From Alphaproteobacteria bacterium (GTDB lineage Bacteria > Pseudomonadota > Alphaproteobacteria > Rs-D84), in the NCBI GenBank assembly GCA_017511715.1, contig JAFWJF010000001.1, positions 2,892 through 66,891 of the forward strand: a stretch of 64,000 nt of DNA, written 5' to 3'. Position numbers and translations under genes: made by a program. Positions within the stretch are counted from its first letter, which is position 1; each line of letters starts with the position of its first letter. This document shows positions 2,030-51,863 of this stretch, in pieces. The notes beneath the pieces are model-generated. The model searched no databases. It was given only the letters and a program-made list of their open reading frames with translations, and was not told the DNA's origin.

Positions 2030-2045
2030 TCCAAAGGGGGCAAAT

Positions 2046-2279: not shown

Positions 2280-2280
2280 A

Positions 2281-2595: not shown

Positions 2596-2610
2596 CAGTA
2601 TACGCAAGAT

Positions 2611-31948: not shown

Positions 31949-31962
31949 AAAGAAATCACACA

Positions 31963-32108
31963 TCAAAATCATATGAATTAACAGATTTTACAATCGCATC
32001 AACCAATTTGTTTTGATGAGAATCTGATTTTAATAATTTTTCTTCGTTTTTGTTGGACAAATGCCCCAGTTCTATCAATGCACCCGGTACAGTCGAACGC
32101 AATACTGG
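31963..32108. repeat. direct duplicate of the 3' end of amiC (~145 bp, one mismatch), partner at 33898-34042
   Basis: tcaaaatcatatgaattaacagattttacaatcgcatcaacc...cgaacgcaatactg present twice. Confidence 0.85.
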
Positions 32109-32288: not shown

Positions 32289-33875
32289 TTATCTGCTGTT
32301 GTCAGGAATTGTCTTGTCCTGTGTTTTTGTAGTTGTTTTTTTTAACAGTTTTTTTACTGCATTTTTCAATTTTTCTTTTTTGCTTTCCCCTTGCATTTTC
32401 AATTTCAGTTCGTTTGCGAAATCTTTAAACTTTTCATGCAAAACAATTGATACTTTGTGAGGTTCTGGTTTCACAAAAATATTATCACTCCATAAAAAAT
32501 CACTCCCTATTCCTTTAACATTTGGCAGATTTATCGACTTTAAGTTTGTATTTTCAGTTAAAAATTCATCGCCAATATCTTCTACTTTCGGTAAACTTAT
32601 TGATGTTAACATTTTATTGTAATACAAGAATCTATTACCAATTTTTTCAACTTTTGGCATGTTTATTGATGTTAATATTTCGTTATTTTCCAAGAAATAG
32701 TCGCCAATTCTTTTTACAGATGGCAAATCTATTGATGTCAATGCGTTATTAGAATTTAAGAAATGCATACCGATTTGTTCGACCTTTGGTAGCGCTATTG
32801 ATGATAACATCTTGTTCTTCACTAAGAAATCACAACCAATTTTCTTAACATTTGGTAAATTTATTGTTGTTAAACTTTTGTTGTGTTCTAAAAAAACGTC
32901 TTTAATTTTTTCTGTTGTAGCTAAATCTAATTCTATAATCTGCCCTTTGAATATTACAATACGATTGCCGTCCAGTGTGGATAACGTCGTTTCTTTTGTT
33001 ATTTTGTTATATGTTCTGGTAACTTTTTTCCCGTTAAATGCCAGATAAAAAACATCAAATGTTGTGCCGTAATCAATTGGTGAAGTTATTGTTTTATCTT
33101 TATCATTATAAATCATGCCATCAAACATGATTTCGCGGTCTTTGTTCAATCGTGTAATTGTGCCACCAGTAAAATAATAATCGTCACCGATGTAAATGTT
33201 GTCTCTTTCAAAACTGTACCAGACCAACTGGTCATTAACCCAAACATAGTTATTTGGCATTTTAATATCAGAAACATTGAATTCTACATCAAAGAATTTT
33301 CGCAATGAATTTGTAAGTCCCGGGATGATATTATCTGGGTTATTACCGAATGTTGCATCTGGATTGTTTACTGTATGGTTATAACGATTTTTAATAGATA
33401 TAAATCCACCACCCTTTGCAATTTGAATTGATATAACAGATGTTCCGTATTCGTCTTCGCGTTCTGGATTTGCGGATGGTTTTATTTTGTCTGCGCCACG
33501 TTTTACCGCATGAATTATATAAAAGTTTTCATGCCTATTGGGGTCACTGAAAGTACATAATTCTTCGCCGGGGCGATAATATTTTTTTATTGAATCTTTT
33601 TGTTTTTTACTTTCAACTATAAACGCGTCATAGCCCGCTTCATCTAACAATTCTAACGGCTTTTTATCTGTGGTATATTGGGATGCAGACATTATTTTAC
33701 ATTTAGACCGGATTGTTGGTATCAATCTTTCTAGATCTTCTAATTGTGTAAATTCTAATATGTGTTCAATATTTGGAACATCCAGCAATTCGGCATTGCG
33801 AAGAATCTTGGCAAAACGTTCACCGCGATGCTTTTTAATATTTTTAAAAACTTCGGCTGTATCTATTTCTTTCAT
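32289..33875 (-). CDS. BspA-type leucine-rich repeat protein with unknown N-terminal domain
   Basis: C-terminal tandem repeats of about 23 aa (LPNVKKIGCDFLVKNKMLSSIALPKVEQIGMHFL...). No signal peptide. Confidence 0.7.
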   Translation of the reverse strand: MKEIDTAEVFKNIKKHRGERFAKILRNAELLDVPNIEHILEFTQLEDLERLIPTIRSKCKIMSASQYTTDKKPLELLDEAGYDAFIVESKKQKDSIKKYYRPGEELCTFSDPNRHENFYIIHAVKRGADKIKPSANPEREDEYGTSVISIQIAKGGGFISIKNRYNHTVNNPDATFGNNPDNIIPGLTNSLRKFFDVEFNVSDIKMPNNYVWVNDQLVWYSFERDNIYIGDDYYFTGGTITRLNKDREIMFDGMIYNDKDKTITSPIDYGTTFDVFYLAFNGKKVTRTYNKITKETTLSTLDGNRIVIFKGQIIELDLATTEKIKDVFLEHNKSLTTINLPNVKKIGCDFLVKNKMLSSIALPKVEQIGMHFLNSNNALTSIDLPSVKRIGDYFLENNEILTSINMPKVEKIGNRFLYYNKMLTSISLPKVEDIGDEFLTENTNLKSINLPNVKGIGSDFLWSDNIFVKPEPHKVSIVLHEKFKDFANELKLKMQGESKKEKLKNAVKKLLKKTTTKTQDKTIPDNSR

Positions 33876-33890: not shown

Positions 33891-35084
33891 TTAAACGTCA
33901 AAATCATATGAATTAACAGATTTTACAATCGCATCAACCAATTTGTTTTGATGAGAATCTGATTTTAATAATTTTTCTTCGTTTTTGTTGGACAAATGCC
34001 CCAGTTCTATCAACGCACCCGGTACAGTCGAACGCAATACTGCAAATGGCGCATGACGGACAGATGGGCCTTTTTGTTGTTCTATGCTTGCGCGATTAAA
34101 CGATTTAGCACATCCATTTGCGTATTCTTCGCTTAATTCTGCAACAGCACGTTGTTGCAGTGAAGACAAGGCAACACGAATATCTTTGGAAAATTGTTCA
34201 AATCCGTTAACATCTATTTTATCCGCAGCATTTTCTGAATCTGCCAATTTTTGCGCTTCTTCGTCTGATGCTTTTTCAGACAAAGTATAAATTGAAAAGC
34301 CCTTCATGTCACGACTTGGGTTTGCGTTTGCATGCAAAGAAATGAATAAATCGGCGTGTTTCTTTTCGGCAAATTCTGCGCGTTCTGCCAATTTAAGAAA
34401 AGTATCATTAGAACGAGTCAGGTATGTTTTGTATCCGTTTGCTTCCAGTTTGCTTTTCAGTTTTTTTGCGACAGACAAAACAACCGTTTTTTCTTGTGTG
34501 CCACCACGCCCTGTACATCCCGGGTCTTTGCCACCATGTCCAGGATCAATAACTATGACACGTTTCGCAGAATTATTATTTGTTGTTGATTTTGTTTCTG
34601 ACTTTGTTGCTGTTTTTGCAGTCGTTGTTGATACGGGGGCTGATACGTCTATTCCGCGCCCTGTCCCGGCAGCAAAATCAATAACCAACCGATAATCGTT
34701 ATCGCCATTTGGTTCCAGAATCATTATTTGTTTTTTATCAATCGCGTCTATAAGCCCAGATAATGCACACAACACCTGTAATTTCGTACCATCTTGAATT
34801 TGGGTGACGCGCTTTATCATTGTGTCGTTTGCCAGTTTTGGCTGTATACTGCTGCTGCCCGAAGTGTTTGACAGATTTACAATTAACTGTTTGTCACCAT
34901 AAGATAAATCATATACTGGACGTGAAGAAGTTTCGATTACTAATCGTGTCTTGCCGCCTGGTTGCAGACCTGTTCTTATTGAACGCACCGCATTCGGTGC
35001 AGAAAAAGCAACACGTGGTGCAATCCCAACGACTAACGCACTGAAACTAACTGTCCTTAAAAGTTGTCTGCGACTTAATTTCAT
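33891..35084 (-). CDS. amiC: N-acetylmuramoyl-L-alanine amidase (AmiC-like; Tat signal, AMIN and Amidase_3 domains)
   Basis: Tat motif SRRQLLRTVSF and amidase core VIVIDPGHGGKDPG...LFISLHANA. The ORF could start at 35132. Confidence 0.9.
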   Translation of the reverse strand: MKLSRRQLLRTVSFSALVVGIAPRVAFSAPNAVRSIRTGLQPGGKTRLVIETSSRPVYDLSYGDKQLIVNLSNTSGSSSIQPKLANDTMIKRVTQIQDGTKLQVLCALSGLIDAIDKKQIMILEPNGDNDYRLVIDFAAGTGRGIDVSAPVSTTTAKTATKSETKSTTNNNSAKRVIVIDPGHGGKDPGCTGRGGTQEKTVVLSVAKKLKSKLEANGYKTYLTRSNDTFLKLAERAEFAEKKHADLFISLHANANPSRDMKGFSIYTLSEKASDEEAQKLADSENAADKIDVNGFEQFSKDIRVALSSLQQRAVAELSEEYANGCAKSFNRASIEQQKGPSVRHAPFAVLRSTVPGALIELGHLSNKNEEKLLKSDSHQNKLVDAIVKSVNSYDFDV

Positions 35085-35162
35085 GAGAATCATTATATCA
35101 AAAAAAAGACATGGTTTCAAGAAAAGTTGCAATAAAAAAAACCGCCACTGTGGCGGTTTGAT

Positions 35163-36532: not shown

Positions 36533-37604
36533 ATGGTGATTAACAATGAAGTTTTAAATCAAATTGCCGACGACATTTCTGCCGTAAGGGGGTTTCTTTG
36601 ACCCCGAAAAAATTCAATCTGAAATCAACAAATTAAACGATATTTCTAATAAGCCTGATTTATGGGACAAACCGGACGAAGCCCGCAGTGTTTTGCAGAA
36701 AAAATCAAATTTAGAAAAACAGTTGGCTGAATTAAATAGTTTAGAAAACGAATACAAAAATTTGGTTGATTTGTACGATTTGTCGCCAGGAGATCCAGAT
36801 ATCAACAAAGCAGTATCAGAATTGGCGCAATCTGCACACAAAGCAAAATTTATCACTCTATTTAGCGACCCAATGGACAACAACGGCGCGTTTTTATTTA
36901 TTCAGTCCGGTGCGGGTGGTACCGAAGCGCAAGATTGGGCACAAATGTTGTCGCGCATGTACACGCGTTGGTGCGAAAGACATGGTTTTGCTATCGAAGT
37001 TGTCGAAGAACACCCCGGCGATGTCGCAGGTATAAAAAGTATTACGTTCAGAATATCTGGCGAGCGTGCATTTGGTTGGCTGAAAAACGAAATTGGCGTG
37101 CACAGGTTGGTTCGCATATCACCGTTTAACGCAAACGGAAAACGCCAAACCAGTTTTGCTTCGGTTGATGTATGGCCTGATGTTGACGATTCAATAGAAA
37201 TTGAAATAAACGAAAAAGATTTGCGCATTGATACATATCGTGCCAGCGGCGCAGGCGGGCAGCATGTTAACAAGACAGATTCCGCGGTTCGCATAACTCA
37301 TATTCCTACAAATACTGTGGTTACTTGTCAGAACGAACGCAGTCAAATTCAGAACAAAGATATGGCGATGAAAATGTTGCGTTCTAAATTGTACGAACTT
37401 GAAATGCAGAAACGTGCCGCAGAAGAGGATGCAGCAAAAGCCGCCCAAAAGAAAATTGAATGGGGCAGTCAAATAAGAAACTATGTCCTTTATCCATATC
37501 AGTTGGTCAAAGATGTGCGAACAAACGTGGAAAAGACAGATTCTGCCGCGGTTTTAGACGGTGATCTGGATGATTTTATGTTGGCAATGTTGCAACAAGA
37601 GTAA
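36533..37604 (+). CDS. prfB: peptide chain release factor 2 with programmed +1 ribosomal frameshift
   Basis: Frame 0 reads MVINNEVLNQIADDISAVRGFL, then an in-frame TGA at 36599. The +1 frame continues DPEKIQSEINK... into the main ORF, which carries the SPF and GGQ (RASGAGGQHVNKTDSAVRI) motifs. Confidence 0.85.
36585..36602 (+). promoter_or_regulatory. prfB +1 frameshift site (internal SD-like AGGGGG, CTT TGA C slippery context)
   Basis: taagggggtttctttgac parallels the E. coli AGGGGGUAUCUUUGAC site. Confidence 0.8.
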
Positions 37605-37608
37605 ACAC

Positions 37609-38415
37609 ATGAAAAAACTATCTGAAGAATTTTGTTATAACGCGATAAGGGGAACATTTCCAGGCGCGAACAAAATAAGAATTCCGGCTGTTCCGGGGCA
37701 TGTCGCAAAAGTTTTTATTTTTAAGATTAACAATGGTTCGCGCGTATGTCGTTTTAATGAAAAAACACTTGTTATGCGCAATCAAAAACTGACGAAAATG
37801 TTGGTTGATTATGGGGTTCCAATAAAAACAACTCAGGTTCACACTTTCCAAGGACAATATTTTGAATCTTATGAATACGACCCACACAAAACATTGGCAG
37901 AATGCGAAACTGAAATGTCTGATGATGAGATTATAAATGCGTATAAAAGTGCATTGCGCATTCAGGCGCATTTGGCATTATTTCCGTTGCAACAGTTTAA
38001 TCAGATAGATAAATCTCACTTTATGGATGTGTATAAAATAACTATGACTAAATGTATAAACAACTATATGATGCAATATTTGTATCGCGCTGTTTATAAG
38101 CGTTTTTCTGTTGGCAAAAATATGTGTGTAGCACATACTGATTTGACACCCGCAAATATGTTGGTATCAGACAATCATAATGATATCGTACGACTTATTG
38201 ATTTTGATGCTATTTCGATTTGCAATGAAAATATGGCTGTTTTCAGTGCGTTACGCTTATACCCATTATCTAGTGCAAAAGAACTTGTTGAATATTATCA
38301 AGACATATCAGGACACAAATTAAACTATCGCGAGATTATGTTTATGTTGAAACTGTTCAAAGGAACCCTGGACTTTCGCAAACGGCTAAATGACATTTCG
38401 TTCAGACAGCATTAG
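37609..38415 (+). CDS. phosphotransferase (APH / choline-kinase-like) family protein
   Basis: Brenner motif HTDLTPANMLV and RLIDFDA (DFD). Confidence 0.65.
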   Translation: MKKLSEEFCYNAIRGTFPGANKIRIPAVPGHVAKVFIFKINNGSRVCRFNEKTLVMRNQKLTKMLVDYGVPIKTTQVHTFQGQYFESYEYDPHKTLAECETEMSDDEIINAYKSALRIQAHLALFPLQQFNQIDKSHFMDVYKITMTKCINNYMMQYLYRAVYKRFSVGKNMCVAHTDLTPANMLVSDNHNDIVRLIDFDAISICNENMAVFSALRLYPLSSAKELVEYYQDISGHKLNYREIMFMLKLFKGTLDFRKRLNDISFRQH

Positions 38416-38458
38416 TTTCTTGCTTTTGTATGTTAAATATTTATAATTAGATTGATTT

Positions 38459-38535
38459 GCACCCATAGCACAACTGGATAATGCGTTGGCCTCCGAAGCC
38501 AAAGATTGCAGGTTCGAGTCCCGCTGGGTGCGCCA
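38459..38535 (+). tRNA. tRNA-Arg (anticodon CCG)
   Basis: gcacccatagcacaactggataatgcgttggcctCCGaagccaaagattgcaggttcgagtcccgctgggtgcgcca. Confidence 0.85.
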
Positions 38536-38539
38536 TGAA

Positions 38540-38572
38540 TAAAAAAAGACCCAGCAGGGTCTGTTTTTTATT
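38540..38572 (+). terminator. rho-independent terminator after tRNA-Arg
   Basis: aaaaaaagacccagcagggtctgtttttt. Confidence 0.6.
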
Positions 38573-38575
38573 CAC

Positions 38576-38712
38576 TTATGAAGCACCGCGGGACAGGTCA
38601 GAGCGAAGCGCATGACCAATCCGCAGATAAACAATTAAGAAAATATTAAAAAATCGACGTTCACGAGATTTTTTTGATTTTATTTATTGTTTATCAAGGG
38701 CTGGGTGCGCCA
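38576..38712 (+). mobile_element. tRNA-associated repeat element (long variant) ending in a duplicated tRNA-Arg 3' end
   Basis: 38622-38697 is about 85% identical to 18667-18742. The upstream part is a diverged version of the core (aagcgca..acc.a.ccgcag). It ends with gctgggtgcgcca, equal to 38523-38535. Confidence 0.6.
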
Positions 38713-38876
38713 CAAATAAAAAGCCGGTCTTTTAATTATTTTTTTATATAAAAATGCGTCAAAAAGGCCGGCAACAAAAACAAACTGTTTTTTTAATTTT
38801 TTGCGTTATATCAATCAGAAATCGCATGTTATTAAAGCAAAAAATAAAACCGGTTGTTCAACCGGTTTTTATCTGC

Positions 38877-40691
38877 TTATTTTTGCACAAAGTGTACGCT
38901 GTATTGTGGTTTTTTGTCTGCCCCCAAACTGGCGCGCACGACTTTGTTTGATGCAACCTGAACTGCATGGACTAAATTATCACGATTTTTGCGTTCTGTT
39001 TTGGTTAATTTATCAATCGCATTTGTGATTTCGATTTGTATTTGGCGTTTCATAAAACCTGTGTCATCAGACTCAAAGATTCCTGCACTAGAAACTTCTG
39101 GCACACCTTTAAGGAAACCGCGCTTGTCCACCGGCAAAGTCACAAAGATTGCACCATTTGAAGCGATTTTTTTGCGTGTTTTATACACTGGGTCATTGGC
39201 ACTGCGTTCTGTTTCGCCTTCCATAACGACAAAGCCCGTTGGGATAGATTCGCAAACATACGGTTCTGTGCCGTCTTTGAGCGCGATAACATCGCCATTA
39301 TGGACAATCATCATATGTTTAGCCCCACCGCGTTCCATAGCCATTTTTCCGTTCAACATTTCAGAAATAAATTCCCCATGCATTGGAATTGACACTTGTG
39401 GGTGCACTAAATCATAGAATCTTTCCAATTCAGGACGCCCCGCATGGCCAGAAGCATGCAAATTATCTGTATCAAATATTGTGTAAGTTTTGATACCCAT
39501 GCGCGCCAATTTGTTGTAAAGATAAGAAACGTCTTGTTCACGCCCAGGAATAATAATTGCGCTGAAAACCACAGTATCTGTCGGCATCAATTTCAATTCT
39601 TTTACGTGCCCATTACAAAGACGTGTTAACATAGCGAATTTTTCACCCTGGGAACCGGTCAAGAATATAGCCTGTTTTTCGGCTGGCAAATCTTTGATTT
39701 CATCAAAAGTATAAACGTCATCTTTGCCGATATAGCCGTATTCTATACCGATTTCGCGGAATTCTGGCAACCCGACATAAGGCACAGGATTTGGGTTGCT
39801 GCGTTCTTTGATACAGGCGACCCTGCCTGCGGCTTTTGCGGCTTCTGAAAACATTTTGATACGCGCAAGGCTGCGAGAATAGCCGGTAACCAGTACGCGT
39901 CCTGGTGCTTTTTTCATAATTTCTGTTAACGTTTCACGCACCTGAACTTCTGTAGTTTGTGGGGTTTGTCTTTCTGCCGATGTAGAATCACAAACGCACG
40001 CCAACAATTTTGGGTCGGACCCTATTTCTGCCAGGCGAGTATAATTTGTCTTTGGTTCGATTGGGTTGTCATCATTGAAAGTCCAATCGCCCGTATGCAA
40101 GATTTTTCCAGCCGGTGTCTTGATTATCAACATTTGTGCTTCTGGGATAGAGTGTGAAACATGGAAAGTTTCAACTATAAATGGGTCAAGATTAAGTTCT
40201 GCCCCGTTTGCATCAAATTCGATGATATCTTTTTCTGGGTTATAGTCCAATTCGATTCCATCAAATGTGCGGCGCAATATTTCGGCCGGGAAACGCGTGC
40301 AATAGATAGGTTTTCTAAACTTTGGCCAGATGTATTTCAGTGCGCCGATATGGTCTTCGTGTCCGTGAGTAATAACAAAACCCACGACATCTTTTTTGTG
40401 TTTTTCCAGCCATGTTGTATCACAGTATTGAACATCGCCTGCCCCGATTTCTTCTTCCAAGAAGCCCATACCGCAATCAACGATTAAATATTTACCTTTA
40501 TATTTATATACATACATATTTTGACCGACGTGTTCCAAACCGCCAAGTGCCATAAAATATACTTTATCATCGTTTTTATTGCTTTCCGGTTTTTCTTTTA
40601 CGGTGCTGGCGCGTGCTGGCGCGCTCTTTTTTGTCGTAGTTTTGGCTTTTTTTGCCAATTTTTCTTTAATTTTTTCTTTTATTTTCATCAT
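38877..40691 (-). CDS. rnj: ribonuclease J with Lys-rich N-terminal extension
   Basis: Metallo-beta-lactamase HGHEDHIG, beta-CASP and RNase J C-terminal domain. N-terminus KIKEKIKEKLAKKAKTTTKK. Confidence 0.9.
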   Translation of the reverse strand: MMKIKEKIKEKLAKKAKTTTKKSAPARASTVKEKPESNKNDDKVYFMALGGLEHVGQNMYVYKYKGKYLIVDCGMGFLEEEIGAGDVQYCDTTWLEKHKKDVVGFVITHGHEDHIGALKYIWPKFRKPIYCTRFPAEILRRTFDGIELDYNPEKDIIEFDANGAELNLDPFIVETFHVSHSIPEAQMLIIKTPAGKILHTGDWTFNDDNPIEPKTNYTRLAEIGSDPKLLACVCDSTSAERQTPQTTEVQVRETLTEIMKKAPGRVLVTGYSRSLARIKMFSEAAKAAGRVACIKERSNPNPVPYVGLPEFREIGIEYGYIGKDDVYTFDEIKDLPAEKQAIFLTGSQGEKFAMLTRLCNGHVKELKLMPTDTVVFSAIIIPGREQDVSYLYNKLARMGIKTYTIFDTDNLHASGHAGRPELERFYDLVHPQVSIPMHGEFISEMLNGKMAMERGGAKHMMIVHNGDVIALKDGTEPYVCESIPTGFVVMEGETERSANDPVYKTRKKIASNGAIFVTLPVDKRGFLKGVPEVSSAGIFESDDTGFMKRQIQIEITNAIDKLTKTERKNRDNLVHAVQVASNKVVRASLGADKKPQYSVHFVQK

Positions 40692-40802
40692 TTAGTATCC
40701 TTTTTTAAGGTTTAACATTTTGCGCACCCACCAAATTCATTGTCAATAAAGACATATTTTCTTTATCAATAGTAAATCTGTGGGTGTGCGACTTGTGACA
40801 AA

Positions 40803-40824
40803 AGACATATTAAGAAAAATATGT
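40803..40824. promoter_or_regulatory. perfect 7-bp inverted repeat with 8-bp spacer upstream of the giant gene
   Basis: gacatat taagaaaa atatgtc. Confidence 0.3.
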
Positions 40825-40953
40825 CGTTGTTTTTATCATATTCTGTATAATATCGCAAAAAACACACAAAATCAAGGAATAATATTTATGCAGTGTGTTA
40901 TTGGAAAAGCTGTCAAAACAAAAAATAAAAAAAATTACAACAAAAAGCGATTG

Positions 40954-40988
40954 ACACATTACGGAATTTTTTTCTACACTGATAGACA
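40954..40988 (+). promoter_or_regulatory. putative sigma-70 promoter of the giant surface-protein gene
   Basis: TTGACA, 17-bp spacer, TACACT. AAGGAAG RBS 9 nt before the ATG at 41012. Confidence 0.3.
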
Positions 40989-41011
40989 AGAAAAGAAGGA
41001 AGTTTGTTCAG

Positions 41012-44000
41012 ATGGCGGGAATCAAGCCTTTTTATAACATGTTAAAGCGTTTAATATTTGCAATATTCGTAGTGTTTACTGCAAATTCTGCATTTGCGGC
41101 GTGTGCTAGCAATCAAATTGATGTAAATGGTGATGGAACCAAATGTGAGGATGTGAAATTCACATTAGACCTTTCCAGAAGTTCAAACATAACGGTTTTC
41201 AATTTCTTTATGTCTGCCAAAGGAACATTTTATGTCGATTGCGGCAATGGCGGAACATTGACCAGCAATTCTGCCACTAATTACCCGGTATCGGGCAAAA
41301 CAGTTAACCGTACCTATGGAACGGGTAATGTAAGGTACTCTTGTACATGGGCCAATGGCAGCAAGACACAAACAATTAGGTTTGGTGGGGTTGCAGAAGG
41401 ATATAGCACCAATACAAGCACCGCCGCAATACGTTTTAATTATAATGCAACACAAGCGGCATATATAACATCAGTTTCTGGTAATTTGTCCGCTATGTTC
41501 CCGTATATTACAAACAATGCACAAAGTGGTGCACAACCAAGATTTTATATGACTTTTGATAAAGCGACAAACCTGAAAAGTATCCCCGATACATTGTTTG
41601 CAAATTACACAACACCGGCAACAAATATGTTTCATTCTACGTTTAACAATTCAGGATTGACATCAATACCTAGCAATTTGTTTTCCACCATATCTGGCGC
41701 AGCAGAAGGTCTGTTTTCTAGCACATTTAATGGATGTACCGGCTTAACATCAATACCTGGCAATTTGTTTTCCACCATATCTGGCGCAGCAAACAGCTTG
41801 TTCTATGGCACATTTCAGAATTGTACCGGCTTAACATCAATACCTAGCAATTTGTTTTCCGGGGTGTCTGGCGGGGCAAGTTCTATGTTTTTTTTCACGT
41901 TTAAAGGATGTACCGGCTTAACATCAATACCTGGCAATCTGTTTTCCACCATATCTGGCGCAGCAAACAGCTTGTTCTATGGCACATTTAGTGGATGTAC
42001 CGGCTTGACATCAATACCTAGCAATTTGTTTTCCACCATATCTGGCGCAGCAGACGGTCTGTTTTCTAACACATTTAATGGATGTACCGGCTTAACATCA
42101 ATACCTGGCAATCTGTTTTCCGGGGTGTCTGGCGGGGCAAGTTCTATGTTTTCTTACACGTTTAATGATTGCAGTTCGATATCTGCAATACCGGCAGGAC
42201 TATTTTCCGGTGTAAACCAGGCGGCAACAGGTTTGTTCATGAATGCATTTTCTGGTTCTGGGGTAAGTGGTTATATACCACCGACCACATTTTCCGGGTT
42301 GATTTCGGCGGGCAGCCCACAAAGTTCAGATATGTGGCTAGATACATTTTCATACACGAATTTAACAGCGACTTGTCCACAGGGAACAACGCAGTATATG
42401 ACAGGATACGAAGGTGGCACTAATGGTCCTACATGGAATGGGATGGTTTCTTGTACGCCAAATTCGACCACTGCAATTGCAGTAACTTTGGACAGTGCAG
42501 GCGCGACCACAAATGCCACACCTTCGACAATATATCTTCGATACGAGGATCGTTGGTACAGTAATTCTGCCCTTTCTGTTCAGATAAGTTCGCTTAACAC
42601 CATTCCATCAAAAACGGGATATATGTTCGGCGGTTTTTACACTCAACCAAATGGTTCCGGAATACAAATTATCAATTCAAATGGTTACATCTTGCAAACC
42701 ATGGAAGCAATCACGTTTACAACCACACCGACAACCGTGTATGCTTATTGGATAGAACCAAAGTTCACATTAACAACATCATCGACCAACAGTTTTCAAT
42801 TTAAACTATCTGCCGCTGGTACATTCTATGTAGACTGCGGAAACGGTGGAACGTTAAGTGGAACCGGGGCGTCCGGAAACACAATTACGCGTGCCGACAC
42901 AACCGAAGCGACATATACATGTTCATGGACCAACAGTGCAACACGAACAATCAGATTCAGCGGTGCCGCAACCGGGTATAATTCGTCTTATGGTGTTGCA
43001 GCAATAAAGTTTAATATGACAGATGCTGCCACTGATGCAAACGCAGCATTGTTAACGGGTATGTCTGGCACACTGGGGTCAATATTCGGAACAGTTGCCA
43101 CCGCCAGCACAGGCTCTGTTCAACCAGCATTTAATAAGACATTTTATGGTGCATCAAACCTTAATGCGTCAATACCGTCAAACTTTTTTGCGGGCGTTCA
43201 TGGTGCACCACGCGGGGGAATGTTTCAACAAACCTTTTCTGGATGCAGCAGTTTGACCGGCTCTATCCCAGAAACCCTATTCTGTGAAAACACGACCAAT
43301 CCAAGTGCATCAAACTGTATCTATGGAGCACCAATTGGGGCAATGTTTGAACATACATTCCTTGGTTGTAGTGGTTTGACGGGTTCTATCCCAGAAAAAC
43401 TGTTTGTGGGTATCCATGGCGCGCCTGCAAGTTATATGTTTTCTCAGACATTTAATGGATGTAGTGGTTTGACGGGTTCTATCCCAGAAAAACTATTCTG
43501 TCAAAACACAACCAGCCCATCTGCATCAAACTGTATCTATGGCGCACCGGCATCATCTATGTTTGCCTTGACATTTTATGGATGTAGTGGATTAACTGGC
43601 TCTATTCCAGAAAAACTGTTCGTTGGTATCCATGGTGCACCAGCAAATAATATGTTTCAACAAACATTCTATAATTGTAGTGGTTTAACTGGCTCTATTC
43701 CAGAAAAACTATTCTGTCAAAACACAACCAGTCCATCTACATCAAACTGTATCTATGGCGCGCCGGCAAGAGCTATGTTTTTTCACACTTTTTCTGGTTG
43801 TACAAATTTAACTGGTTTGATACCACAAAACCTTTTCAAAGGGATATACGGCGCGCCGGCAGAAAATATGTTTAATGGTACATTTAGGAATGACAACAAA
43901 TTGACAGGAATAACCGACGGCACAACTACCACAACCTATGTTCCATCAACATTCCTTAGCGCGATTAACAACACAAGCGCAACAACACCAGCAACAGGAA

Positions 44001-47000
44001 TGTTTACTGGTACGGGGCTTGCATCGTCTTGTCCGACGTGGGCAGCCGCCGCAACACCGGTATGGGCAACTGATGCTGGTAAGCCATGGTGCGAACCAGA
44101 TATAAAATTCACATTAAACACATTAGCGACTAACAGTTTTCAATTTAAACTATCTGCCGCTGGTACATTCTATGTAGACTGCGGAAATGGCGGAAGGTTA
44201 AGTGTGGTAAACGGTAACGGAACAGTTTCTGGGAATACGATAACAAAAACAGGTACTTCGTGGGGGACATTTGAATGTTCTTGGGATGATACCGAACCAC
44301 AAACACTTCGATTTGGTGGTGCAGCATCAGGGTACACTGCAAGCCAATCAGGCGGTGCAATAAGATTTAATGTTTCTGATACAAACCAAGATGATGATAC
44401 AAACGCACCAAAGATCACCGGAATATCCGGGTCATTGGGTGCAATATTTGGAACCATAGATGGCACGGTTTCCCCAACAGGCGCGGAATCACAACCAAGA
44501 TTCTATGGAACATTTTGGGCTGCATCCAACCTTGCTGGTTCAATACCAGACGAGCTTTTCTATGGCATACATGGCACACCAATATCATATATGTTTAACC
44601 GTACTTTCCGTGGTTGTAGCAGTTTAACTGGAAAAATACCTGAAACATTATTCTGTCAAAACACAAGCAACCCAAATGCATCAAACTGTATTTATGGCGC
44701 ACCGACACAACAGATGTTTTACATGACTTTTCACGGATGTAGCGGTTTGACAGGAAATTCTTCAACCGGATATGCCATTCCTGCAAAATTATTTGCAGGT
44801 ATTCGTGGTGATCCATCTTCAGCATCGAGTGTGTTTGGTTATACATTTTCCGGTTGTAGTGGTTTAAATGGGCAAATACCTGAAACATTATTCTGTCAAA
44901 ACCCGAACAGCCCCAGTGCATCAAACTGTATCTATGGTGCGCCGGCATCAAATATGTTTTCATTTACATTCCAAGGATGCACTGGTTTGACAGGTGACGG
45001 TATACATGCCGTTCCAGTAAAGTTGTTTGCAGGTCTCCATGGCGCGCCGGCACCAAAAATGTTTCAATCTACTTTTACTGGCGACACAGGATTGACAGGG
45101 GAAATTCCACCTGCGCTATTCTGTGGTGGTAATACGAATAATCTGAGTAATCCATCTGCCTCAAACTGTATCTATGGCACCCCGGCAACAGAAATGTTTA
45201 ATAGTACGTTTTATAATACTAGAATAACACATGTAGATAAAAATATGTTTGCGGGGATATCCGGTACTTCTGCGGAAAAGATGTTCTATCGTACATTTAA
45301 AAGTTGTAGTTCATTGTCGTACATAAATGATACCTTTAACACAAAAGCGACAACTTACATTCCGTCAGATTTCCTTGGTGGCATTACTGATGGATCCGTG
45401 ACAAATGACGCAACAGAAATGTTCACAGGTACGGGACTCACATCACCTTGTCCGACGGGGACAGCCACCGCAACACCGGCGTGGGCAACGGATGCTGCCA
45501 AACCATGGTGTGCACCCAACACATATAGCATTACATATGATATGAATGGTGGAACAAACTATTCCGGCGCACCTACAACATATGTTTATGGGACAAGTAC
45601 AACAATTAATGGCGCACCAACAAAATCAGGCTATATATTCAAAGGATGGACTGGTTCTAATGGTTCAACACCACAACCAACCGTGACGATTGGTGCAAGT
45701 GCCACCGGGGCAAAATCTTACACTGCGAACTGGGAAACGGCAAAATTCACATTAACCACATCAGGAATGAGCGATTTCAGCTTCAAGCTTTCGCCAAAGG
45801 GAACATTCTATGTCGATTGCGGAAATGGTGGAACGTTAAGTGGTCAAAGCGCGTCCGGCAGTACAGTTTCCGTCAACACAATCACACGTACAACCACAAC
45901 CGCAACAACATATACTTGTAGCTGGGCCAGTAGTGCTGGAAACAAAACAATATCTTTTGGCGGGTCTGCCACAAATACCACAACAACATATAACTCAGAT
46001 ACGAACGTACCAGCAATACATTTTTTGGAAAGTAGTAATGCAGACTCAATCAAAAGCGTATCTGGTAATTTGTCCGCGATGTTCCCGTACATCACATCAA
46101 ATGCACAAAGTGGTGCTCAACCAAGGTTTAACAGAACATTTTATGATGCAACACACTTGACCAGTGTTCCCGATACATTATTCGCAAATTATACCACACC
46201 CGCAACATATATGTTTAGTAATACATTTGCAAGTTCTGGGTTAACATCGATACCGGCGGGACTGTTTTCCCGCATAACCGGTGCAGCAACCGGTTTGTTC
46301 GAGGGTACATTTAGCGGTGCGCGCTTAACATCAGTGCCGGCGGGGCTATTTGCCGGGATATCTGGTGTGGCAGACAGTTTGTTTAATAGCACATTTACTG
46401 GCACACCAATAACATCTATACCAGAGAATTTGTTTGCCGGGGTATCGGGGTCTGCATCTGGCGTGTTTTCTTACGCTTTTTATCGTTGCGCTAGCCTGGC
46501 CACCATAACAAATGGGCAAACAAGTACGACCTATGTTCCGGGAACGTTCCTTAGTGATGTTACTGGCAATGACAATTACATTGGTGCCGACATGTTTGGC
46601 ATGACAGACTTGGCTGACACCTGTCCATATGGTATGGGCGATACAACACCGGCATGGGCAAGTGATGCTGGTAAACCATGGTGTTCTCCCAATACATATA
46701 CAATAACCTATTCTGCCGGTCAAGGTGGCGTTGGTGCAAACCAAACGGAAAACGTTGTGTTTGGCACCACATTTACCACAAAATCTGCAAATACGTTTAG
46801 TAAACCACACGCTACATTTACAGGCTGGGATACTCTTGAATACTCTTCAGCCTGGACACAACCAGATACAACATATACTTATGATTTGCCGTCAGATATT
46901 ACGATTGCAGCACAATGGACATGTGATTCTGGATACACATTAAATAACAGCACCGGAAATTGCGATGCCAACAGTATCACATGTGATCCAGGTTTTTATC

Positions 47001-50000
47001 TGAAAGGCAACACTCTAACATGTACGGCATGTCCTGCTGGTAAATATTGCGCGGGTGGCACATACACTCATAACGGTACGGACTTAGGTATAACTGGCGA
47101 TGTTACGGCGGGATATTTTGCTTCTGGTGGTGCAAAGGTCGCAGCCCCAACCAGCAACAGCGATTGCTTAAGCGGTAATACATGCGGTAAATGTACGACA
47201 GATTCTGCCACTGGTCGTCCTGCGTATTCAACAGCTGGAGCAGCAAGTTGTTCGGCATGCCCTGCAGTAACGGGCGATATGGCAAGTCGTGTTATCTCTT
47301 ATGCAGGTTGGTGGAGCAACGATATACATAATGCGGTTACAGGATGCGCTGCCTGGTTCAATGATACAGATAATGATGCAACATTCAGAGTGTATTGCTA
47401 TTATAACACTACAGATGGTGCCTATGGTGGTTCAAACAGCATTTGCCAAGTATGGCATCCGACTGCTTGTGCAGCAGGAAAATATGATACGATAGAATCA
47501 ACAACGGAATGGCTTGCTTCTGCTAATTACACACGTGGGAAAGGTGTAGATTTCATGAATGGCAAGGTTTGTACAAACACAGATGCAGGTTATTACAGTG
47601 CCGAAGGTTCTTTGACACAAACCGCATGTGCAGCAGGCTCTTACAGCAGTGCGGGCGCAAGTACATGTACGGCATGTCCGGCGGGTAAGACAACCGCTGG
47701 CACTGGAACGGCTTTCAACACTAATGCAAACACTACATGTTCAACAAGTTGTTCGTCTATCGCAAACCTGAAAACTTGGAACAGTCAGACTTGGAACAGC
47801 GCAAATAATACAGTGACTAATTTGTGCACGGTTGCAACTTGTAATGCTGGGGCATATAAGTCTGGTAACACTTGTCCGGTTTGTGGTGCGAATTCTTGGT
47901 CAGATGATGGTGCAAGCAGCTGTACAGCATGTAACACGACCAATGGATACACGAACAGTGGAACAACAGCGGCGGCTCATGCTGGTCAGTACAGTTGTAA
48001 GACCACGTGTGCGGCAGGTAAACAAGTTGCAAGTCCTGGCGAGGCATGTTCTACCCCCGGTGGCAGTTGGTATTCTGTTCAACACACTGTAGGGGAAGGA
48101 TCGACATCCGCTGTTCAGCTGATAAGTAATCCGAATGTATTTGATTGTTTAATTGGTGGCTATGCAACACCTGACACAACTATACAAACAGACCACGATG
48201 CAAGCACAGATTGTAGGATAACATGTTCTGCAGGAAGCAGAGTCACAACGCCTAATGGTATGTGTACAGCGATAACGAGTGGCAATGTATATATGCTTGA
48301 ACATACTGTTGCCCAGGGATCTACATCACCAAAAGCAACATCATGCCCAACAAGTTATACAATCAGCGGTTCTACACAAGCAGACCACGATGCGAAGAAC
48401 GATTGTAAGATAACATGTGGTGCTGGATATGTTGTTGACACAGAAGATGGTAATTGTATTGTGCCAGAAGAAGGTTTCCAGACAGGGATACATACAGTAA
48501 GCGCAGGAAGTGTGACACGAATAGATAAAGATCCAGGCATGAACGTACCCCGTGCAGGAATATGGTATGACTGTTTGACTAACTATAGTGCGACAGGCAA
48601 AAGCGCAATCAACCACGATCAAAGAAGTGATTGTAAAATAACATGTAATGCGGGAACACAGATTGCAACTAACAATGCAACTAGGTGCACGACACCGACA
48701 GGAAGTTGGTACACAGAACAACATACAGTAAGTGCAGGCAGCACGAGTAGTCCAACCAGTTGTGCGACAGGCTATGCAACAGCAAACACATCAACCGCAA
48801 CAGACCACGATGCGCAAGCCGATTGTAAGATTGGGTGCAGTGCTGGATATTATATACCAACAGCAGGTGGTGGATGCAAGGCATGTCCTGCTGGTAAATA
48901 CTGCACAGCAATAAGTGGTATTGCAGAAACTGCAACATCTGCCGCGACAGGAAACATAACGGCTGGGTATTTTGCTTCTGGTGGTGCAAAGGTCGCAACC
49001 CCAACAAGTAGCAGCGATTGCTTAAGCGGTAATACATGCGGCACATGCCAGGGACAGAATGGACCAAATGGTCGTCCACTTTATACTGATGCAACCGGCG
49101 GCGCAGCACAATGTTCTGAGTGTCCAGCAGTAGAAGCATCTTTAACAAGTCGTGTTGTCTCATATGGTTATTGGCCAGATACGCGTGACAGAGGGATACA
49201 AAATTGTTCTGCGAAATTCACTGATACAGATCCTGATGCTACGTTTACTACGGAATGTTATTATAGAGGCTCTAATTATCATGAATCCTTTAACTGTCAA
49301 ACCGCCGCACCAACCGCTTGTGCTGCGGGTAAGTATGAAACTATCAGAACAACAGACAAATGGGGCACATATTACGCCATTGGTACTGGAGTAGATCATA
49401 TGAACGGTAAGGTTTGTACGGATACAGATGCAGGTTATTACAGTGCCGAAGGTTCTTTGACACAAACCGCATGTGCAACGGGTTCATACAGCAGTGCTGG
49501 CGCAAGTACATGTACGGCATGTCCGGCGGGTAAGACAACCGCTGGCACCGGAACAGCTTTCAACACTAATGCAAACACTACATGTTCAACAAGTTGTTCG
49601 TCTATCACAAACCTAAAAACTTGGAACAGTCAGACATGGAACAGTTCAAATAATACAGTGACTAATTTGTGCACGGTTGCGACTTGTAATGCTGGGGCAT
49701 ATAAGTCTGGTAACACTTGTCCGGTTTGTGGGGCGAATTCTTGGTCAGATGCTGGTGCAAGCAGCTGTACAGCATGTCAAACAGATTATACCAACAGCGG
49801 AACAACAGCGACAAACCATGCAGGAAACGCATCTTGTAAGATAACTGTATCTGGCGGTCATTATATTGGCACACCCGGTCAAAACAGCACAAACTGGGGA
49901 ACATGTGATGCAGGAACCTTTAAGGCGCAACATACCGTGGCATATGGCAGCACAAGTAGTTGTTCGAACTGCGAAGGCAGAACGAAGTACAGTGCGGCAG

Positions 50001-51613
50001 GTGCATCATCTTGTTCAACTGTAAGCAGTGGATATTACTCAACAGGATGTACATCTAATAATAACTGTACAGGACAATCACAGTGTACGGGTGCAACATA
50101 CTGTGCAAGTGGTGTACAAAACAACTGTCCGACAGCAGAAAGCACATGGACACAGGGTACTGGTAATGGATGGACAGCTGTAACACAGTGCTTTGAGACC
50201 AAGAACGCAACAGATGTAAGCAGTTATTGCAGTGCTGGACAATTAAAGAAGAACGCTACGAACACCACGACCTGGGGCGACAGCACAATAAGCACAGCGT
50301 TGAAAGCAAAAGCGGGTTCTATTGTAAGCGGACAAACATGTACACAATGTACAGGTGCCACATTCTCGGCTGGTGATACTGCGACAAGTTGTAGTGCATG
50401 CCCGACTGGATATGATGCGAACACAGATGCTGGCAAGAGCACGAACACACAATGCCAGATAAGTGTGACGGGCGGTCATTATATTGGTACGAAGGGTCAG
50501 ACAAGTTCTAACTGGGATACATGTGCGGCAGGTACATACAAGGCAGCACACACTGTGAACTATAACAGCACAAGTAGTTGTTCGAACTGCGAAGGCAGAA
50601 CGAAGTACAGTGCGGCGGGTGCATCATCTTGTTCAACTGTCACCAGCGGATACTATTCAACCGGTTGTGACACATCGACAAACAATAACTGTACAGGACA
50701 ATCAAAGTGTACTGGAAAAACATATTGCACAAATGGTGTACAGGAAGATTGTCCAGCCGCAGCTGATCACAAACGTACAACGTTCCCAGCAGCATATTAT
50801 TCGCCAACAATTACAAGCACATCCATAATGAGTGCCAGTAGACGCAAGGCAATCACAGAATGTAAGGCTTCTTCGACAATGACTGGGGCACGCGGAACAT
50901 TGATTGATCAAGCAACATATAACCCAACCACAGAAGAATACGACACCACAACATGGTATGGATATTATAATGTTAAACCGGGGTATTATTTGACCACCAC
51001 GGGCAGTTGCGGAACATACGCATACTATCAAAATGCGGAAATTTGTCCAGATGGTGCTTATTGTCCGGGCAAGGCGGGGGTTAAGTGTGATTCTAGCAAC
51101 GAAGCAACCGTTCATACGCCAACATTCGGTCTGGAAGAATGTTCAGCATTGAACAGCGAATATACAAAATCTGATAGTGGGCGCAATGCAGCAACCGATT
51201 GCTATCTGAACACGACAGCAACAAAATATGTTGCAACTGCTGGTGAAAACCAAGTTGATTGTATTGCAGACGGATATTGTCCGGGTAATGTAAAGATATA
51301 TTATAACAGCATTGGTGGACGCACTGCGTGCCCTGCCACAGCACCATATAGTGGCGCGGGTATGTCAAGGCCCGAACAATGCGGACGCAAGTTGCATATT
51401 GGCGATAACGTAATGTATTTGCGTTCTGAAAAAGCAACGACACCTTCGCTGAACGTCAATTTTGGTGGCATGACATATTATGGAAATATGGCAGAAACCC
51501 AAGCAAACATTACAAGTTCTTCAACCAAAGAATTGAAGATTAAATACAAAAATAATAACAAATTGTACTACTTGTGTGATGACACAACCTGTCCAGAGGC
51601 AGACAACGATTAA
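41012..51613 (+). CDS. giant secreted mosaic surface protein (3533 aa): four N-modules with BspA-like LRR blocks, Listeria-Bacteroides repeats, ephrin-receptor-like Cys-rich repeats, conserved C-terminal domain
   Basis: Signal peptide MAGIKPFYNMLKRLIFAIFVVFTANSAFA. Four copies of KFTL..F.FKLSAAGTFYVDCGNGGTLSG...TYTCSW...TIRFGG. LRR repeats LFxxISGAAxxLFxxTFxGCTGLTSIP. Repeats of the form YxITYxxNGG...GYxFKGW. More than 20 C..G.Y..(A)G...C..CPAGKxxxG motifs. Single uninterrupted ORF. Confidence 0.9.
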   Translation: MAGIKPFYNMLKRLIFAIFVVFTANSAFAACASNQIDVNGDGTKCEDVKFTLDLSRSSNITVFNFFMSAKGTFYVDCGNGGTLTSNSATNYPVSGKTVNRTYGTGNVRYSCTWANGSKTQTIRFGGVAEGYSTNTSTAAIRFNYNATQAAYITSVSGNLSAMFPYITNNAQSGAQPRFYMTFDKATNLKSIPDTLFANYTTPATNMFHSTFNNSGLTSIPSNLFSTISGAAEGLFSSTFNGCTGLTSIPGNLFSTISGAANSLFYGTFQNCTGLTSIPSNLFSGVSGGASSMFFFTFKGCTGLTSIPGNLFSTISGAANSLFYGTFSGCTGLTSIPSNLFSTISGAADGLFSNTFNGCTGLTSIPGNLFSGVSGGASSMFSYTFNDCSSISAIPAGLFSGVNQAATGLFMNAFSGSGVSGYIPPTTFSGLISAGSPQSSDMWLDTFSYTNLTATCPQGTTQYMTGYEGGTNGPTWNGMVSCTPNSTTAIAVTLDSAGATTNATPSTIYLRYEDRWYSNSALSVQISSLNTIPSKTGYMFGGFYTQPNGSGIQIINSNGYILQTMEAITFTTTPTTVYAYWIEPKFTLTTSSTNSFQFKLSAAGTFYVDCGNGGTLSGTGASGNTITRADTTEATYTCSWTNSATRTIRFSGAATGYNSSYGVAAIKFNMTDAATDANAALLTGMSGTLGSIFGTVATASTGSVQPAFNKTFYGASNLNASIPSNFFAGVHGAPRGGMFQQTFSGCSSLTGSIPETLFCENTTNPSASNCIYGAPIGAMFEHTFLGCSGLTGSIPEKLFVGIHGAPASYMFSQTFNGCSGLTGSIPEKLFCQNTTSPSASNCIYGAPASSMFALTFYGCSGLTGSIPEKLFVGIHGAPANNMFQQTFYNCSGLTGSIPEKLFCQNTTSPSTSNCIYGAPARAMFFHTFSGCTNLTGLIPQNLFKGIYGAPAENMFNGTFRNDNKLTGITDGTTTTTYVPSTFLSAINNTSATTPATGMFTGTGLASSCPTWAAAATPVWATDAGKPWCEPDIKFTLNTLATNSFQFKLSAAGTFYVDCGNGGRLSVVNGNGTVSGNTITKTGTSWGTFECSWDDTEPQTLRFGGAASGYTASQSGGAIRFNVSDTNQDDDTNAPKITGISGSLGAIFGTIDGTVSPTGAESQPRFYGTFWAASNLAGSIPDELFYGIHGTPISYMFNRTFRGCSSLTGKIPETLFCQNTSNPNASNCIYGAPTQQMFYMTFHGCSGLTGNSSTGYAIPAKLFAGIRGDPSSASSVFGYTFSGCSGLNGQIPETLFCQNPNSPSASNCIYGAPASNMFSFTFQGCTGLTGDGIHAVPVKLFAGLHGAPAPKMFQSTFTGDTGLTGEIPPALFCGGNTNNLSNPSASNCIYGTPATEMFNSTFYNTRITHVDKNMFAGISGTSAEKMFYRTFKSCSSLSYINDTFNTKATTYIPSDFLGGITDGSVTNDATEMFTGTGLTSPCPTGTATATPAWATDAAKPWCAPNTYSITYDMNGGTNYSGAPTTYVYGTSTTINGAPTKSGYIFKGWTGSNGSTPQPTVTIGASATGAKSYTANWETAKFTLTTSGMSDFSFKLSPKGTFYVDCGNGGTLSGQSASGSTVSVNTITRTTTTATTYTCSWASSAGNKTISFGGSATNTTTTYNSDTNVPAIHFLESSNADSIKSVSGNLSAMFPYITSNAQSGAQPRFNRTFYDATHLTSVPDTLFANYTTPATYMFSNTFASSGLTSIPAGLFSRITGAATGLFEGTFSGARLTSVPAGLFAGISGVADSLFNSTFTGTPITSIPENLFAGVSGSASGVFSYAFYRCASLATITNGQTSTTYVPGTFLSDVTGNDNYIGADMFGMTDLADTCPYGMGDTTPAWASDAGKPWCSPNTYTITYSAGQGGVGANQTENVVFGTTFTTKSANTFSKPHATFTGWDTLEYSSAWTQPDTTYTYDLPSDITIAAQWTCDSGYTLNNSTGNCDANSITCDPGFYLKGNTLTCTACPAGKYCAGGTYTHNGTDLGITGDVTAGYFASGGAKVAAPTSNSDCLSGNTCGKCTTDSATGRPAYSTAGAASCSACPAVTGDMASRVISYAGWWSNDIHNAVTGCAAWFNDTDNDATFRVYCYYNTTDGAYGGSNSICQVWHPTACAAGKYDTIESTTEWLASANYTRGKGVDFMNGKVCTNTDAGYYSAEGSLTQTACAAGSYSSAGASTCTACPAGKTTAGTGTAFNTNANTTCSTSCSSIANLKTWNSQTWNSANNTVTNLCTVATCNAGAYKSGNTCPVCGANSWSDDGASSCTACNTTNGYTNSGTTAAAHAGQYSCKTTCAAGKQVASPGEACSTPGGSWYSVQHTVGEGSTSAVQLISNPNVFDCLIGGYATPDTTIQTDHDASTDCRITCSAGSRVTTPNGMCTAITSGNVYMLEHTVAQGSTSPKATSCPTSYTISGSTQADHDAKNDCKITCGAGYVVDTEDGNCIVPEEGFQTGIHTVSAGSVTRIDKDPGMNVPRAGIWYDCLTNYSATGKSAINHDQRSDCKITCNAGTQIATNNATRCTTPTGSWYTEQHTVSAGSTSSPTSCATGYATANTSTATDHDAQADCKIGCSAGYYIPTAGGGCKACPAGKYCTAISGIAETATSAATGNITAGYFASGGAKVATPTSSSDCLSGNTCGTCQGQNGPNGRPLYTDATGGAAQCSECPAVEASLTSRVVSYGYWPDTRDRGIQNCSAKFTDTDPDATFTTECYYRGSNYHESFNCQTAAPTACAAGKYETIRTTDKWGTYYAIGTGVDHMNGKVCTDTDAGYYSAEGSLTQTACATGSYSSAGASTCTACPAGKTTAGTGTAFNTNANTTCSTSCSSITNLKTWNSQTWNSSNNTVTNLCTVATCNAGAYKSGNTCPVCGANSWSDAGASSCTACQTDYTNSGTTATNHAGNASCKITVSGGHYIGTPGQNSTNWGTCDAGTFKAQHTVAYGSTSSCSNCEGRTKYSAAGASSCSTVSSGYYSTGCTSNNNCTGQSQCTGATYCASGVQNNCPTAESTWTQGTGNGWTAVTQCFETKNATDVSSYCSAGQLKKNATNTTTWGDSTISTALKAKAGSIVSGQTCTQCTGATFSAGDTATSCSACPTGYDANTDAGKSTNTQCQISVTGGHYIGTKGQTSSNWDTCAAGTYKAAHTVNYNSTSSCSNCEGRTKYSAAGASSCSTVTSGYYSTGCDTSTNNNCTGQSKCTGKTYCTNGVQEDCPAAADHKRTTFPAAYYSPTITSTSIMSASRRKAITECKASSTMTGARGTLIDQATYNPTTEEYDTTTWYGYYNVKPGYYLTTTGSCGTYAYYQNAEICPDGAYCPGKAGVKCDSSNEATVHTPTFGLEECSALNSEYTKSDSGRNAATDCYLNTTATKYVATAGENQVDCIADGYCPGNVKIYYNSIGGRTACPATAPYSGAGMSRPEQCGRKLHIGDNVMYLRSEKATTPSLNVNFGGMTYYGNMAETQANITSSSTKELKIKYKNNNKLYYLCDDTTCPEADND

Positions 51614-51717
51614 TAATTCTCGTTTGAGACAATCGTTGTCCTGGGCCTGTAAAATGTGCAAGCGCCCCACCCCGCAGCACATATCGCGATAGCGTCCCGC
51701 AAAGAATCAATAAAACA

Positions 51718-51752
51718 CTTGATTTTCTAAATAAAACGGTATAAAATGTGCA
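51718..51752 (+). promoter_or_regulatory. putative promoter of rpsD
   Basis: TTGATT, 17-bp spacer, TAAAAT, followed by a ~110-nt leader. Confidence 0.3.
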
Positions 51753-51863
51753 ACGCTGAATAACCAGAACTGATTAAACAATGGTGTCTTTTGGTCCCAT
51801 TAGCGATAAGGATTCTGTGAAGTGTTCGGCACAAGAAAAACCAAAAACTAAAAGGAATATATT

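Follow-up and report, generated by a model that had tools for sequence, protein, structure and literature searches.

How did long, nearly identical DNA segments come to lie within one bacterial gene, and do they change the length of the protein that it encodes? This question is posed by a giant gene in a 64,000-nucleotide stretch of alphaproteobacterial genome (assembly GCA_017511715.1, contig JAFWJF010000001.1, positions 2,892 to 66,891 of the forward strand; this whole stretch is called the window below). The host is a not yet cultured gut alphaproteobacterium of the order Rs-D84, a relative of Candidatus Enterousia, and the gene, 10.6 kb long in the window and 10.6–11.3 kb across its forms, encodes what is probably a secreted, cell-surface, adhesin-like protein. 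An original prediction made from the window listed five repeat pairs within this gene and held that they probably make its length variable and make its assembly prone to collapse. We consider it highly probable that the repeats are real in-frame duplications of modules within one giant gene, partly homogenised by recombination between the copies. Modules would arise by intragenic duplication, and homologous recombination between copies, through gene conversion and unequal crossing-over, would keep them partly homogeneous, with patches of near identity within older, diverged repeats, plus mosaic units, as the outcome. RecA would mediate the exchange between copies, and copy number may vary in living populations.

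Results and Discussion

Repeat Architecture of the Giant Gene

The giant open reading frame (ORF) and the repeats that it contains are as follows.

41012–51613, + strand: giant ORF of 3533 codons, a single uninterrupted frame encoding 3533 amino acids (aa)
41654–42262, + strand: tandem array of seven 87-bp (29-aa) units, pairwise identity 71–97%
42761–45520, + strand: modules M2 and M3, a direct repeat (offset 1344) with an overall identity of 65%
43127–43873 and 44498–45214, + strand: 216/240-bp (72/80-aa) sub-repeats in M2 and M3
47105–47971, + strand: repeat copy R1 in the Cys-rich half, a blastn high-scoring segment pair with 48959–49810 (77.5% identity, E = 0)
47562–47932, + strand: high-identity patch, copy 1, inside R1
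48959–49810, + strand: repeat copy R2 in the Cys-rich half, offset 1854, then 1845
49404–49777, + strand: high-identity patch, copy 2, inside R2
49826–50443, + strand: 618-bp (206-aa) unit V1, directly followed by a second full unit (U2) in metagenome scaffold B, described below
50444–50765, + strand: partial unit V2, whose first ~320 nt are homologous to V1 at ~80%

The longest exact direct repeats in the gene measure 56, 54, 51 and 51 nt, followed by four of 50 nt, compared with a maximum of 17 nt (mean 14 nt) in 100 codon-shuffled versions of the gene. All five pairs listed by the original prediction are present within the one ORF, well beyond chance, and for the most prominent of them, 47562–47932 with 49404–49777, the estimate of ~95% over ~370 bp is confirmed: the 374 aligned columns are 94.1% identical, include a single 3-nt indel and contain exact runs of up to 54 nt. 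This patch lies within the R1/R2 repeat of ~870 bp. Other pairs required adjustment in detail. The match placed at 47040–47180 and 48890–49040 exists, though at 69% over those spans, and its true extent is 47105–47193 with 48959–49047 (91% over 89 nt). The repeat at 49840–50060 and 50460–50680 is likewise real (79% identical); its perfect core measures 51 nt (V2 copy at 50566–50616), and the 75 nt first given for that core are reached with one mismatch. For the pair first placed at 42790 and 44125, the exact core of M2 and M3 is 56 nt long (42788–42843 with 44132–44187), so that only the second coordinate was off, by ~7 nt.

In the 87-bp array, Tandem Repeats Finder reports a period of 87, 5.3 copies and 81% matches, and it confirms the 216-bp array as well; degenerate 87-bp units stretch the former to 41567–42349. 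The units described as nearly identical leucine-rich repeats (LRRs) at 41741 and 41921 are indeed 92% identical (units 41741 and 41915, exact run 50 nt), with units 41654 and 42002 closer still at 97%; the LRR label itself found no confirmation from Pfam LRR models. The last 618-bp unit is homologous for only ~320 nt, making 1.5 units in the window and 2.5 in scaffold B. All repeat offsets (87, 174, 261, 348, 216, 618, 1344, 1845 and 1854) are divisible by 3, and deletion or duplication between copies would therefore keep the reading frame and alter module number alone.

Exchange between Repeat Copies

In a codon alignment of R1 and R2, the flanks of the patch share 41–68% aa identity (three 30-codon windows), and 3–10 of the 11–19 conserved codons per window differ synonymously, which amounts to ~40–65% in most windows. 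Inside 47552–47930, aa identity is mostly 93–100% (89–90% in two edge windows), with synonymous differences at 2–3 of 28–30 conserved codons per window, or 4–5 of 25–27 at the edges, and a rate across the patch of ~10% of conserved codons. Synonymous sites are thus homogenised within the patch, and since selection on the protein cannot hold synonymous sites identical, this argues for recent gene conversion. Clustering of identical positions exceeds that in all of 5000 column shuffles for the 1854-bp repeat (249 compared with at most 59), the module repeat (56 compared with 33) and the 618-bp repeat (68 compared with 26). We infer that the patch is a conversion tract of ~370–400 bp that was recently copied. 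Taken together, the mosaic distribution of identity, the homogenised synonymous sites and the mosaic unit U2 (see below) support recent sequence exchange between repeat copies.

The same data bear on the proposal that purifying selection on identical protein modules keeps their DNA alike, recent recombination playing no part. The 94% patch does encode a Cys-rich module with 97% protein identity, which is possibly constrained. Within the patch, however, ~90% of the conserved codons are identical at the DNA level compared with 35–60% in the flanks, and exact runs reach 50–56 nt. Such selection leaves synonymous sites free, yet these are homogenised here, and we reject this explanation as very improbable. 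Still less credible is a diversity-generating retroelement, with template and variable repeats, or another programmed system as the maker of the near-identical pair. Two copies of ~370 bp that are 94% identical and lie in a surface-protein gene would suit such an element, but the mismatches comprise all substitution types and are not adenine-specific, 13 of the 18 fall at codon position 3, and both copies are coding and co-linear inside a longer repeat. The window furthermore holds no reverse-transcriptase motif, and no inverted repeats of ≥60 nt were found in it. On the mixed mismatch spectrum and the lack of a reverse-transcriptase motif in the window this candidate was discarded.

Comparison with Other Assemblies

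Two metagenome scaffolds, ERZ28653461 scaffold_1465 (A) and ERZ28655009 scaffold_233 (B), were retrieved by exact look-ups of S4, RNase J and tryptophanyl-tRNA synthetase (TrpRS) and, with the fetched pieces merged, were aligned with the window over 33.6 kb (window 28877–62496). Outside the repeats the window equals B throughout, and A has one private single-nucleotide polymorphism (SNP). Inside them, A and B each have an additional 87-bp unit that duplicates the one at 41654 in tandem at 98% identity, and B carries one extra 618-bp unit, its product being 3768 aa long compared with 3533 aa in the window. The first of these length differences maps as follows.

41654–41740, + strand: 87-bp unit, single in the window and a near-exact tandem pair (98%) in scaffolds A and B

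In A, a scaffold gap of 100 N lies exactly at the extra 618-bp unit, with flanks that fit the presence of that unit. The remaining differences are seven SNPs, all at 50254–50554 and inside 618-bp units, and A and B differ from each other at one site within their shared segment. In the middle unit of B, U2, the first 197 nt match the following unit perfectly and the last 264 nt match the preceding one perfectly; between these ends U2 resembles the preceding unit and has 8 private SNPs. Because of these private SNPs and the mosaic of its neighbours, we take U2 to be real sequence with a recombinant make-up. A Logan contig (SRR12529293) begins at window position 50611, 30 nt before U2 and the following unit, U3, diverge. 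If the Logan graph was built at k = 31, a break at 50611 is expected only if U2 exists, both continuations then being present.

Crossing-over between 618-bp units 1 and 2 would give the short form seen in the window. There is, in our estimation, an even chance that the gene instead has one fixed structure, the form of at least 3768 aa found in B, and that all differences among the window, A and B stem from short-read assembly. The window would then follow a path from unit 1 through the 197-nt segment common to units 2 and 3 into unit 3, skipping the loop, and would have merged the 87-bp tandem pair, whose copies are nearly identical, into one; units 1 and 2 would truly differ at five 3' sites, and A and B would have merged the resulting bubble into the perfect 264-nt identity. 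The layout of the window is exactly that of such a loop-skipping path, and the extra 87-bp unit, which matches its tandem neighbour at 98%, falls below a typical read length minus k. The five 'SNPs' of the window at 50254–50401 fall in the segment of which B has two perfect copies of 264 nt, and no other part of the window could have donated them, as expected if two true copies that differ slightly were resolved in different ways by different assemblers. A and B also disagree at one site in the shared segment. The scaffold gap in A and the break of the Logan contig lie at the same repeat. Finally, with the window equal to B and A one SNP off outside the repeats, all three may share one population, and the window may come from that of B. 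Against a fixed structure, a real deletion caused by a crossover that joins units 1 and 2 would yield an identical layout, and A and B concur on both extra units. Recombination between 1-kb tandem repeats, usually reliant on RecA, occurs in ~1e-4 of cells in several bacteria, and such per-cell rates for kb-scale tandem repeats make heterogeneity plausible (PMC2884548). A real deletion variant and an assembly collapse thus appear about equally likely as the source of the short form, with a slight lean to collapse. Even with a fixed structure the repeats remain real and past recombination still holds; present-day variation is then not implied.

A more radical artefact would be a giant ORF that is itself a chimera, misassembled from paralogous single-module genes. 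The relatives listed for the N-terminal module are 389–769 aa long and mostly of single-module size, and the C-terminal domain also occurs on proteins of 170–517 aa. The gene is, however, unbroken over 3533 codons (3768 in B), its unique segments follow one another in the same order in all three assemblies, which come from at least two samples, and it has no DNA similarity to the rest of the window; on this shared order and the missing similarity we rejected the chimera, to which we give hardly any credence.

Two indels compared with 0–1 SNP in 33.6 kb form the basis of a further, tentative reading, in our view rather unlikely, in which the giant gene is a contingency locus that switches fast, in a partner-dependent bacterium whose genome measures ~0.9 Mb, with unequal recombination altering adhesin length and modules within a clonal population much more quickly than point mutation could.

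Several observations weigh against in-frame duplication with continuing recombination as the account of this gene. The copy-number differences among the window, A and B may have arisen in assembly. In none of the three assemblies has the pair at offset 1845, longer and more alike than any other, undergone deletion or duplication. By the TrpRS look-up the species is present in only ~4 assemblies, and one clone was sampled. Motif scans for RecA gave no match in the window and the retrieved contigs, which make up a small part of any genome, so that this result is uninformative. Most of the giant protein has no match to a curated family, and its surface placement derives from a signal peptide recognised by eye. 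Length variation or assembly collapse had been foreseen, and at least one of the two is true, with three assemblies differing in their repeat arrays and with a gap and a contig break at the 618-bp repeat. The emphasis had been on the 1845/1854-bp and 1344-bp pairs, at which the three assemblies do not differ in length; the differences lie instead in the 87-bp and 618-bp arrays.

The public gene calls of A at its gap comprise spurious antisense ORFs of 154 and 160 aa, matching window 46346–46810 and 48681–49163 on the − strand, together with a 437-aa 3' fragment. The repeat-induced gap thus corrupts annotation.

The Encoded Protein

Upstream of the gene and at the two ends of its product the following elements were recognised.

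40951–41011, + strand: putative promoter and ribosome-binding site, read by eye
41012–41101, + strand: signal-peptide-like N-terminus, MAGIKPFYNMLKRLIFAIFVVFTANSAFA/AC, read by eye
51386–51598, + strand: conserved C-terminal domain of ~70 aa, CGxxLHxGDxxxYLRSxKxTTPSLNV...YGNM...DD

The candidate promoter, sigma-70-like to the eye, consists of TTGACA (40951–40956), an 18-nt spacer and TACACT (40975–40980), and a candidate ribosome-binding site GAAGGA, also read by eye, lies 11 nt 5' of the ATG. The N-terminus MAGIKPFYNMLKRLIFAIFVVFTANSAFA/AC may be a lipoprotein signal, with Cys as residue 31; it is weakly similar to the Lysis_col lipoprotein signal (Pfam, E 0.6). Self-comparison of the protein delineates four modules at about aa 45–460, 582–1026, 1027–1500 and 1575–1940, each made up of a beta domain with an FYVDCGNGG motif and then a solenoid of 29-, 72- or 80-aa repeats. 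Between modules sit Listeria-Bacteroides repeats (Flg_new, PF09479), the sole Pfam family over threshold in the giant protein, with a match at aa 1505–1552 that scores 32 bits when the whole protein is searched and 38 bits when the segment is searched alone (gathering cut-off 27). The Cys-rich half spans ~1240 aa (aa ~1991–3230, 7.3% Cys). Several of its segments show sub-threshold similarity to Ephrin_rec_like (PF07699), at best 20.9 bits compared with a cut-off of 23.1, and its TNFR-like Pfam matches are likewise sub-threshold; a PDB sequence search with the Cys-rich segments gave no match. An exact database look-up of the 3533-aa product found no record.

Module 1 (41102–42421), comprising the FYVDCGNGG beta domain and the 29-aa solenoid, has at least 1487 relatives at E ≤ 0.001. 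The best 120 relatives of the N-terminal module are unnamed proteins, 389–769 aa in length; those listed with an organism label come from metagenome-assembled genomes (MAGs) of uncultured Alphaproteobacteria/Rickettsiales, and a few listed relatives have precomputed matches to LRR_5, DUF285, Flg_new or PKD. No protein above 770 aa is among the relatives listed in either search, and longer ones may lie outside those listed. By sequence comparison, the FYVDCGNGG plus 29-aa-solenoid module is a large unannotated family, of which the giant gene joins four members. The 29-aa units follow a pattern, F-x-G-C-x-x-L-T-S-I-P, that we take to be reminiscent of BspA/DUF285 repeats, with no Pfam match to either: the units, the whole protein and the repeat segment gave none to LRR_5 (PF13306) or DUF285 (PF03382) even at E ≤ 1. 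Nor did BLASTP detect similarity between the giant protein and the product of a true LRR_5 gene (32289–33875) located 7 kb upstream. A single-sequence AlphaFold2 model of module 1 is an all-beta solenoid of mediocre quality (pLDDT 62.6, pTM 0.71), and its best PDB fold match, a beta-helix, is weak (TM 0.23). The units are therefore best called an LRR-like solenoid, their LRR status being unconfirmed.

The C-terminal domain also ends a 243-aa ORF at 19491–20222 (domain 19866–20219) and many 170–517 aa proteins of related bacteria. Its AlphaFold2 model (pLDDT 80–89) is a small all-beta fold of six strands that has no PDB match, and the domain belongs to no Pfam family. No sortase/LPXTG-type anchor was found in the giant protein, which has this lineage-specific domain in that place, and the domain may serve lineage-specific anchoring or sorting.

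Genomic Neighbourhood and Lineage

The giant gene has a G+C content of 44–46%, compared with ~38% in its flanks and ~35–40% over most of the window; this may reflect a composition rich in Thr, Ala, Gly and Cys instead of foreign origin. Its housekeeping neighbours are RNase J, S4 and TrpRS, joined by an XerC-like recombinase. In species-representative genomes queried with the C-terminal domain, the closest named genome is Ca. Enterousia onthequi, a single distant locus was obtained, and no between-species orthologue of like architecture was found. Enterousia/Rs-D84 genomes are smaller than 1 Mbp and lack the tricarboxylic acid cycle and respiration, and an obligately symbiotic or parasitic lifestyle, with many hypothetical membrane proteins, has been predicted for these bacteria (PMC12306168). 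A gene of 10.6–11.3 kb for a modular secreted protein would fit a role in cell contact.

A metagenome scan with repeat copy R1 returned four related loci that are differently built. One of these, L017, is syntenic, with RNase J 87% identical, and has only a 556-aa Cys-rich gene. The related contigs L003, L007 and L010 have giant genes unrelated in their 3' parts, so that the difference between 4229 and 2995 aa among them is uninformative here. Gene order also varies. In the window (36693–51863) RNase J is encoded by the − strand and separated from S4 by the giant gene. In L003–L010, RNase J (+) lies directly 5' of S4, and the unrelated giant genes of L003, L007 and L010 lie beside an amidase; L017 has yet another gene order around prfB, RNase J and S4. 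From these arrangements, the prfB/RNase J/S4 region seems especially prone to inversion and to the insertion of large surface-protein genes.

Two features upstream of the giant gene were noted in passing. The true LRR_5 gene mentioned above is of the BspA type (528 aa, 32289–33875, − strand) and is flanked by a 148-nt direct repeat, 99% identical, at 31960–32107 and 33895–34042, the right copy of which forms the 3' end of an Amidase_3 gene (33891–35132, − strand). This repeat resembles what a cassette insertion or duplication would leave behind, and it provides a substrate for excising the LRR gene. The RF2 (prfB) ORF at 36693–37604 starts ~46 residues into the family profile, and CTTTGAC occurs at 36596–36602, ~90 nt upstream of it. 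Truncation and motif fit a classic programmed +1 frameshift site.

Relation to Known Repeat Proteins

Surface proteins that change length through in-frame repeat recombination include alpha C/Rib of group B Streptococcus, Sdr/Clf/SasG of Staphylococcus, and Bap/Esp. In-frame variable segments are richest in surface proteins such as SdrE and ClfB (PMC2884548). Like these repeat-bearing surface proteins, the giant gene has long in-frame repeats of high DNA identity and a product predicted to be secreted, deletion and duplication would preserve the frame, and such repeats are known to produce in-frame variable segments and assembly trouble. Unlike a single long array of identical units, it mixes seven 87-bp units with 216-bp units and 1.5–2.5 units of 618 bp, and it differs further in its dispersed pairs 1.3–1.9 kb apart, its unannotated module families, its host, a reduced-genome uncultured alphaproteobacterium, and in that copy-number differences were seen between assemblies only. 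The predicted all-beta solenoid of its module and the few homologues with LRR_5/DUF285 matches recall BspA-type LRR proteins, whereas the giant protein fails the LRR_5 and DUF285 models and has no similarity to the neighbouring LRR_5 protein. In reduced-genome Alphaproteobacteria, Neorickettsia strain-specific antigens and Wolbachia ankyrin-repeat genes are reportedly repeat-rich and strain-variable (PMC2764437, PMC3563639). Here too a small-genome, partner-dependent alphaproteobacterium would spend much coding capacity on a repeat-rich, probably outward-facing protein, but the domain families of the giant gene are unrelated to those described there, and the Rs-D84 lifestyle is only a predicted one (PMC12306168). 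Recombination between intragenic repeats is a textbook mechanism, ordinary for large bacterial surface proteins; the protein family here is unannotated and the lineage poorly known.

Conclusions

The window's gene model of 3533 aa probably falls 705 bp short of the complete gene or represents one of several forms. A form of at least 3768 codons occurs in two samples, and short-read annotation, protein clustering and MAG comparison of this gene are unreliable for that reason; the early warning of length variation and assembly trouble is apt whether the structure is fixed or variable. Taking up over 1% of a genome of probably less than 1 Mbp, in a lineage predicted to rely on other cells, the giant gene encodes a prime candidate for cell-contact machinery. 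With the differences confined to repeats, it offers a concrete case in which to ask if recombination lets a gut symbiont with a reduced genome vary one of its surface proteins. Should the gene prove to be a contingency locus, such variation would adjust how the bacteria attach to host or partner cells, or help them escape recognition, and the module family together with the C-terminal domain would define a new surface-display system of Rs-D84 alphaproteobacteria.

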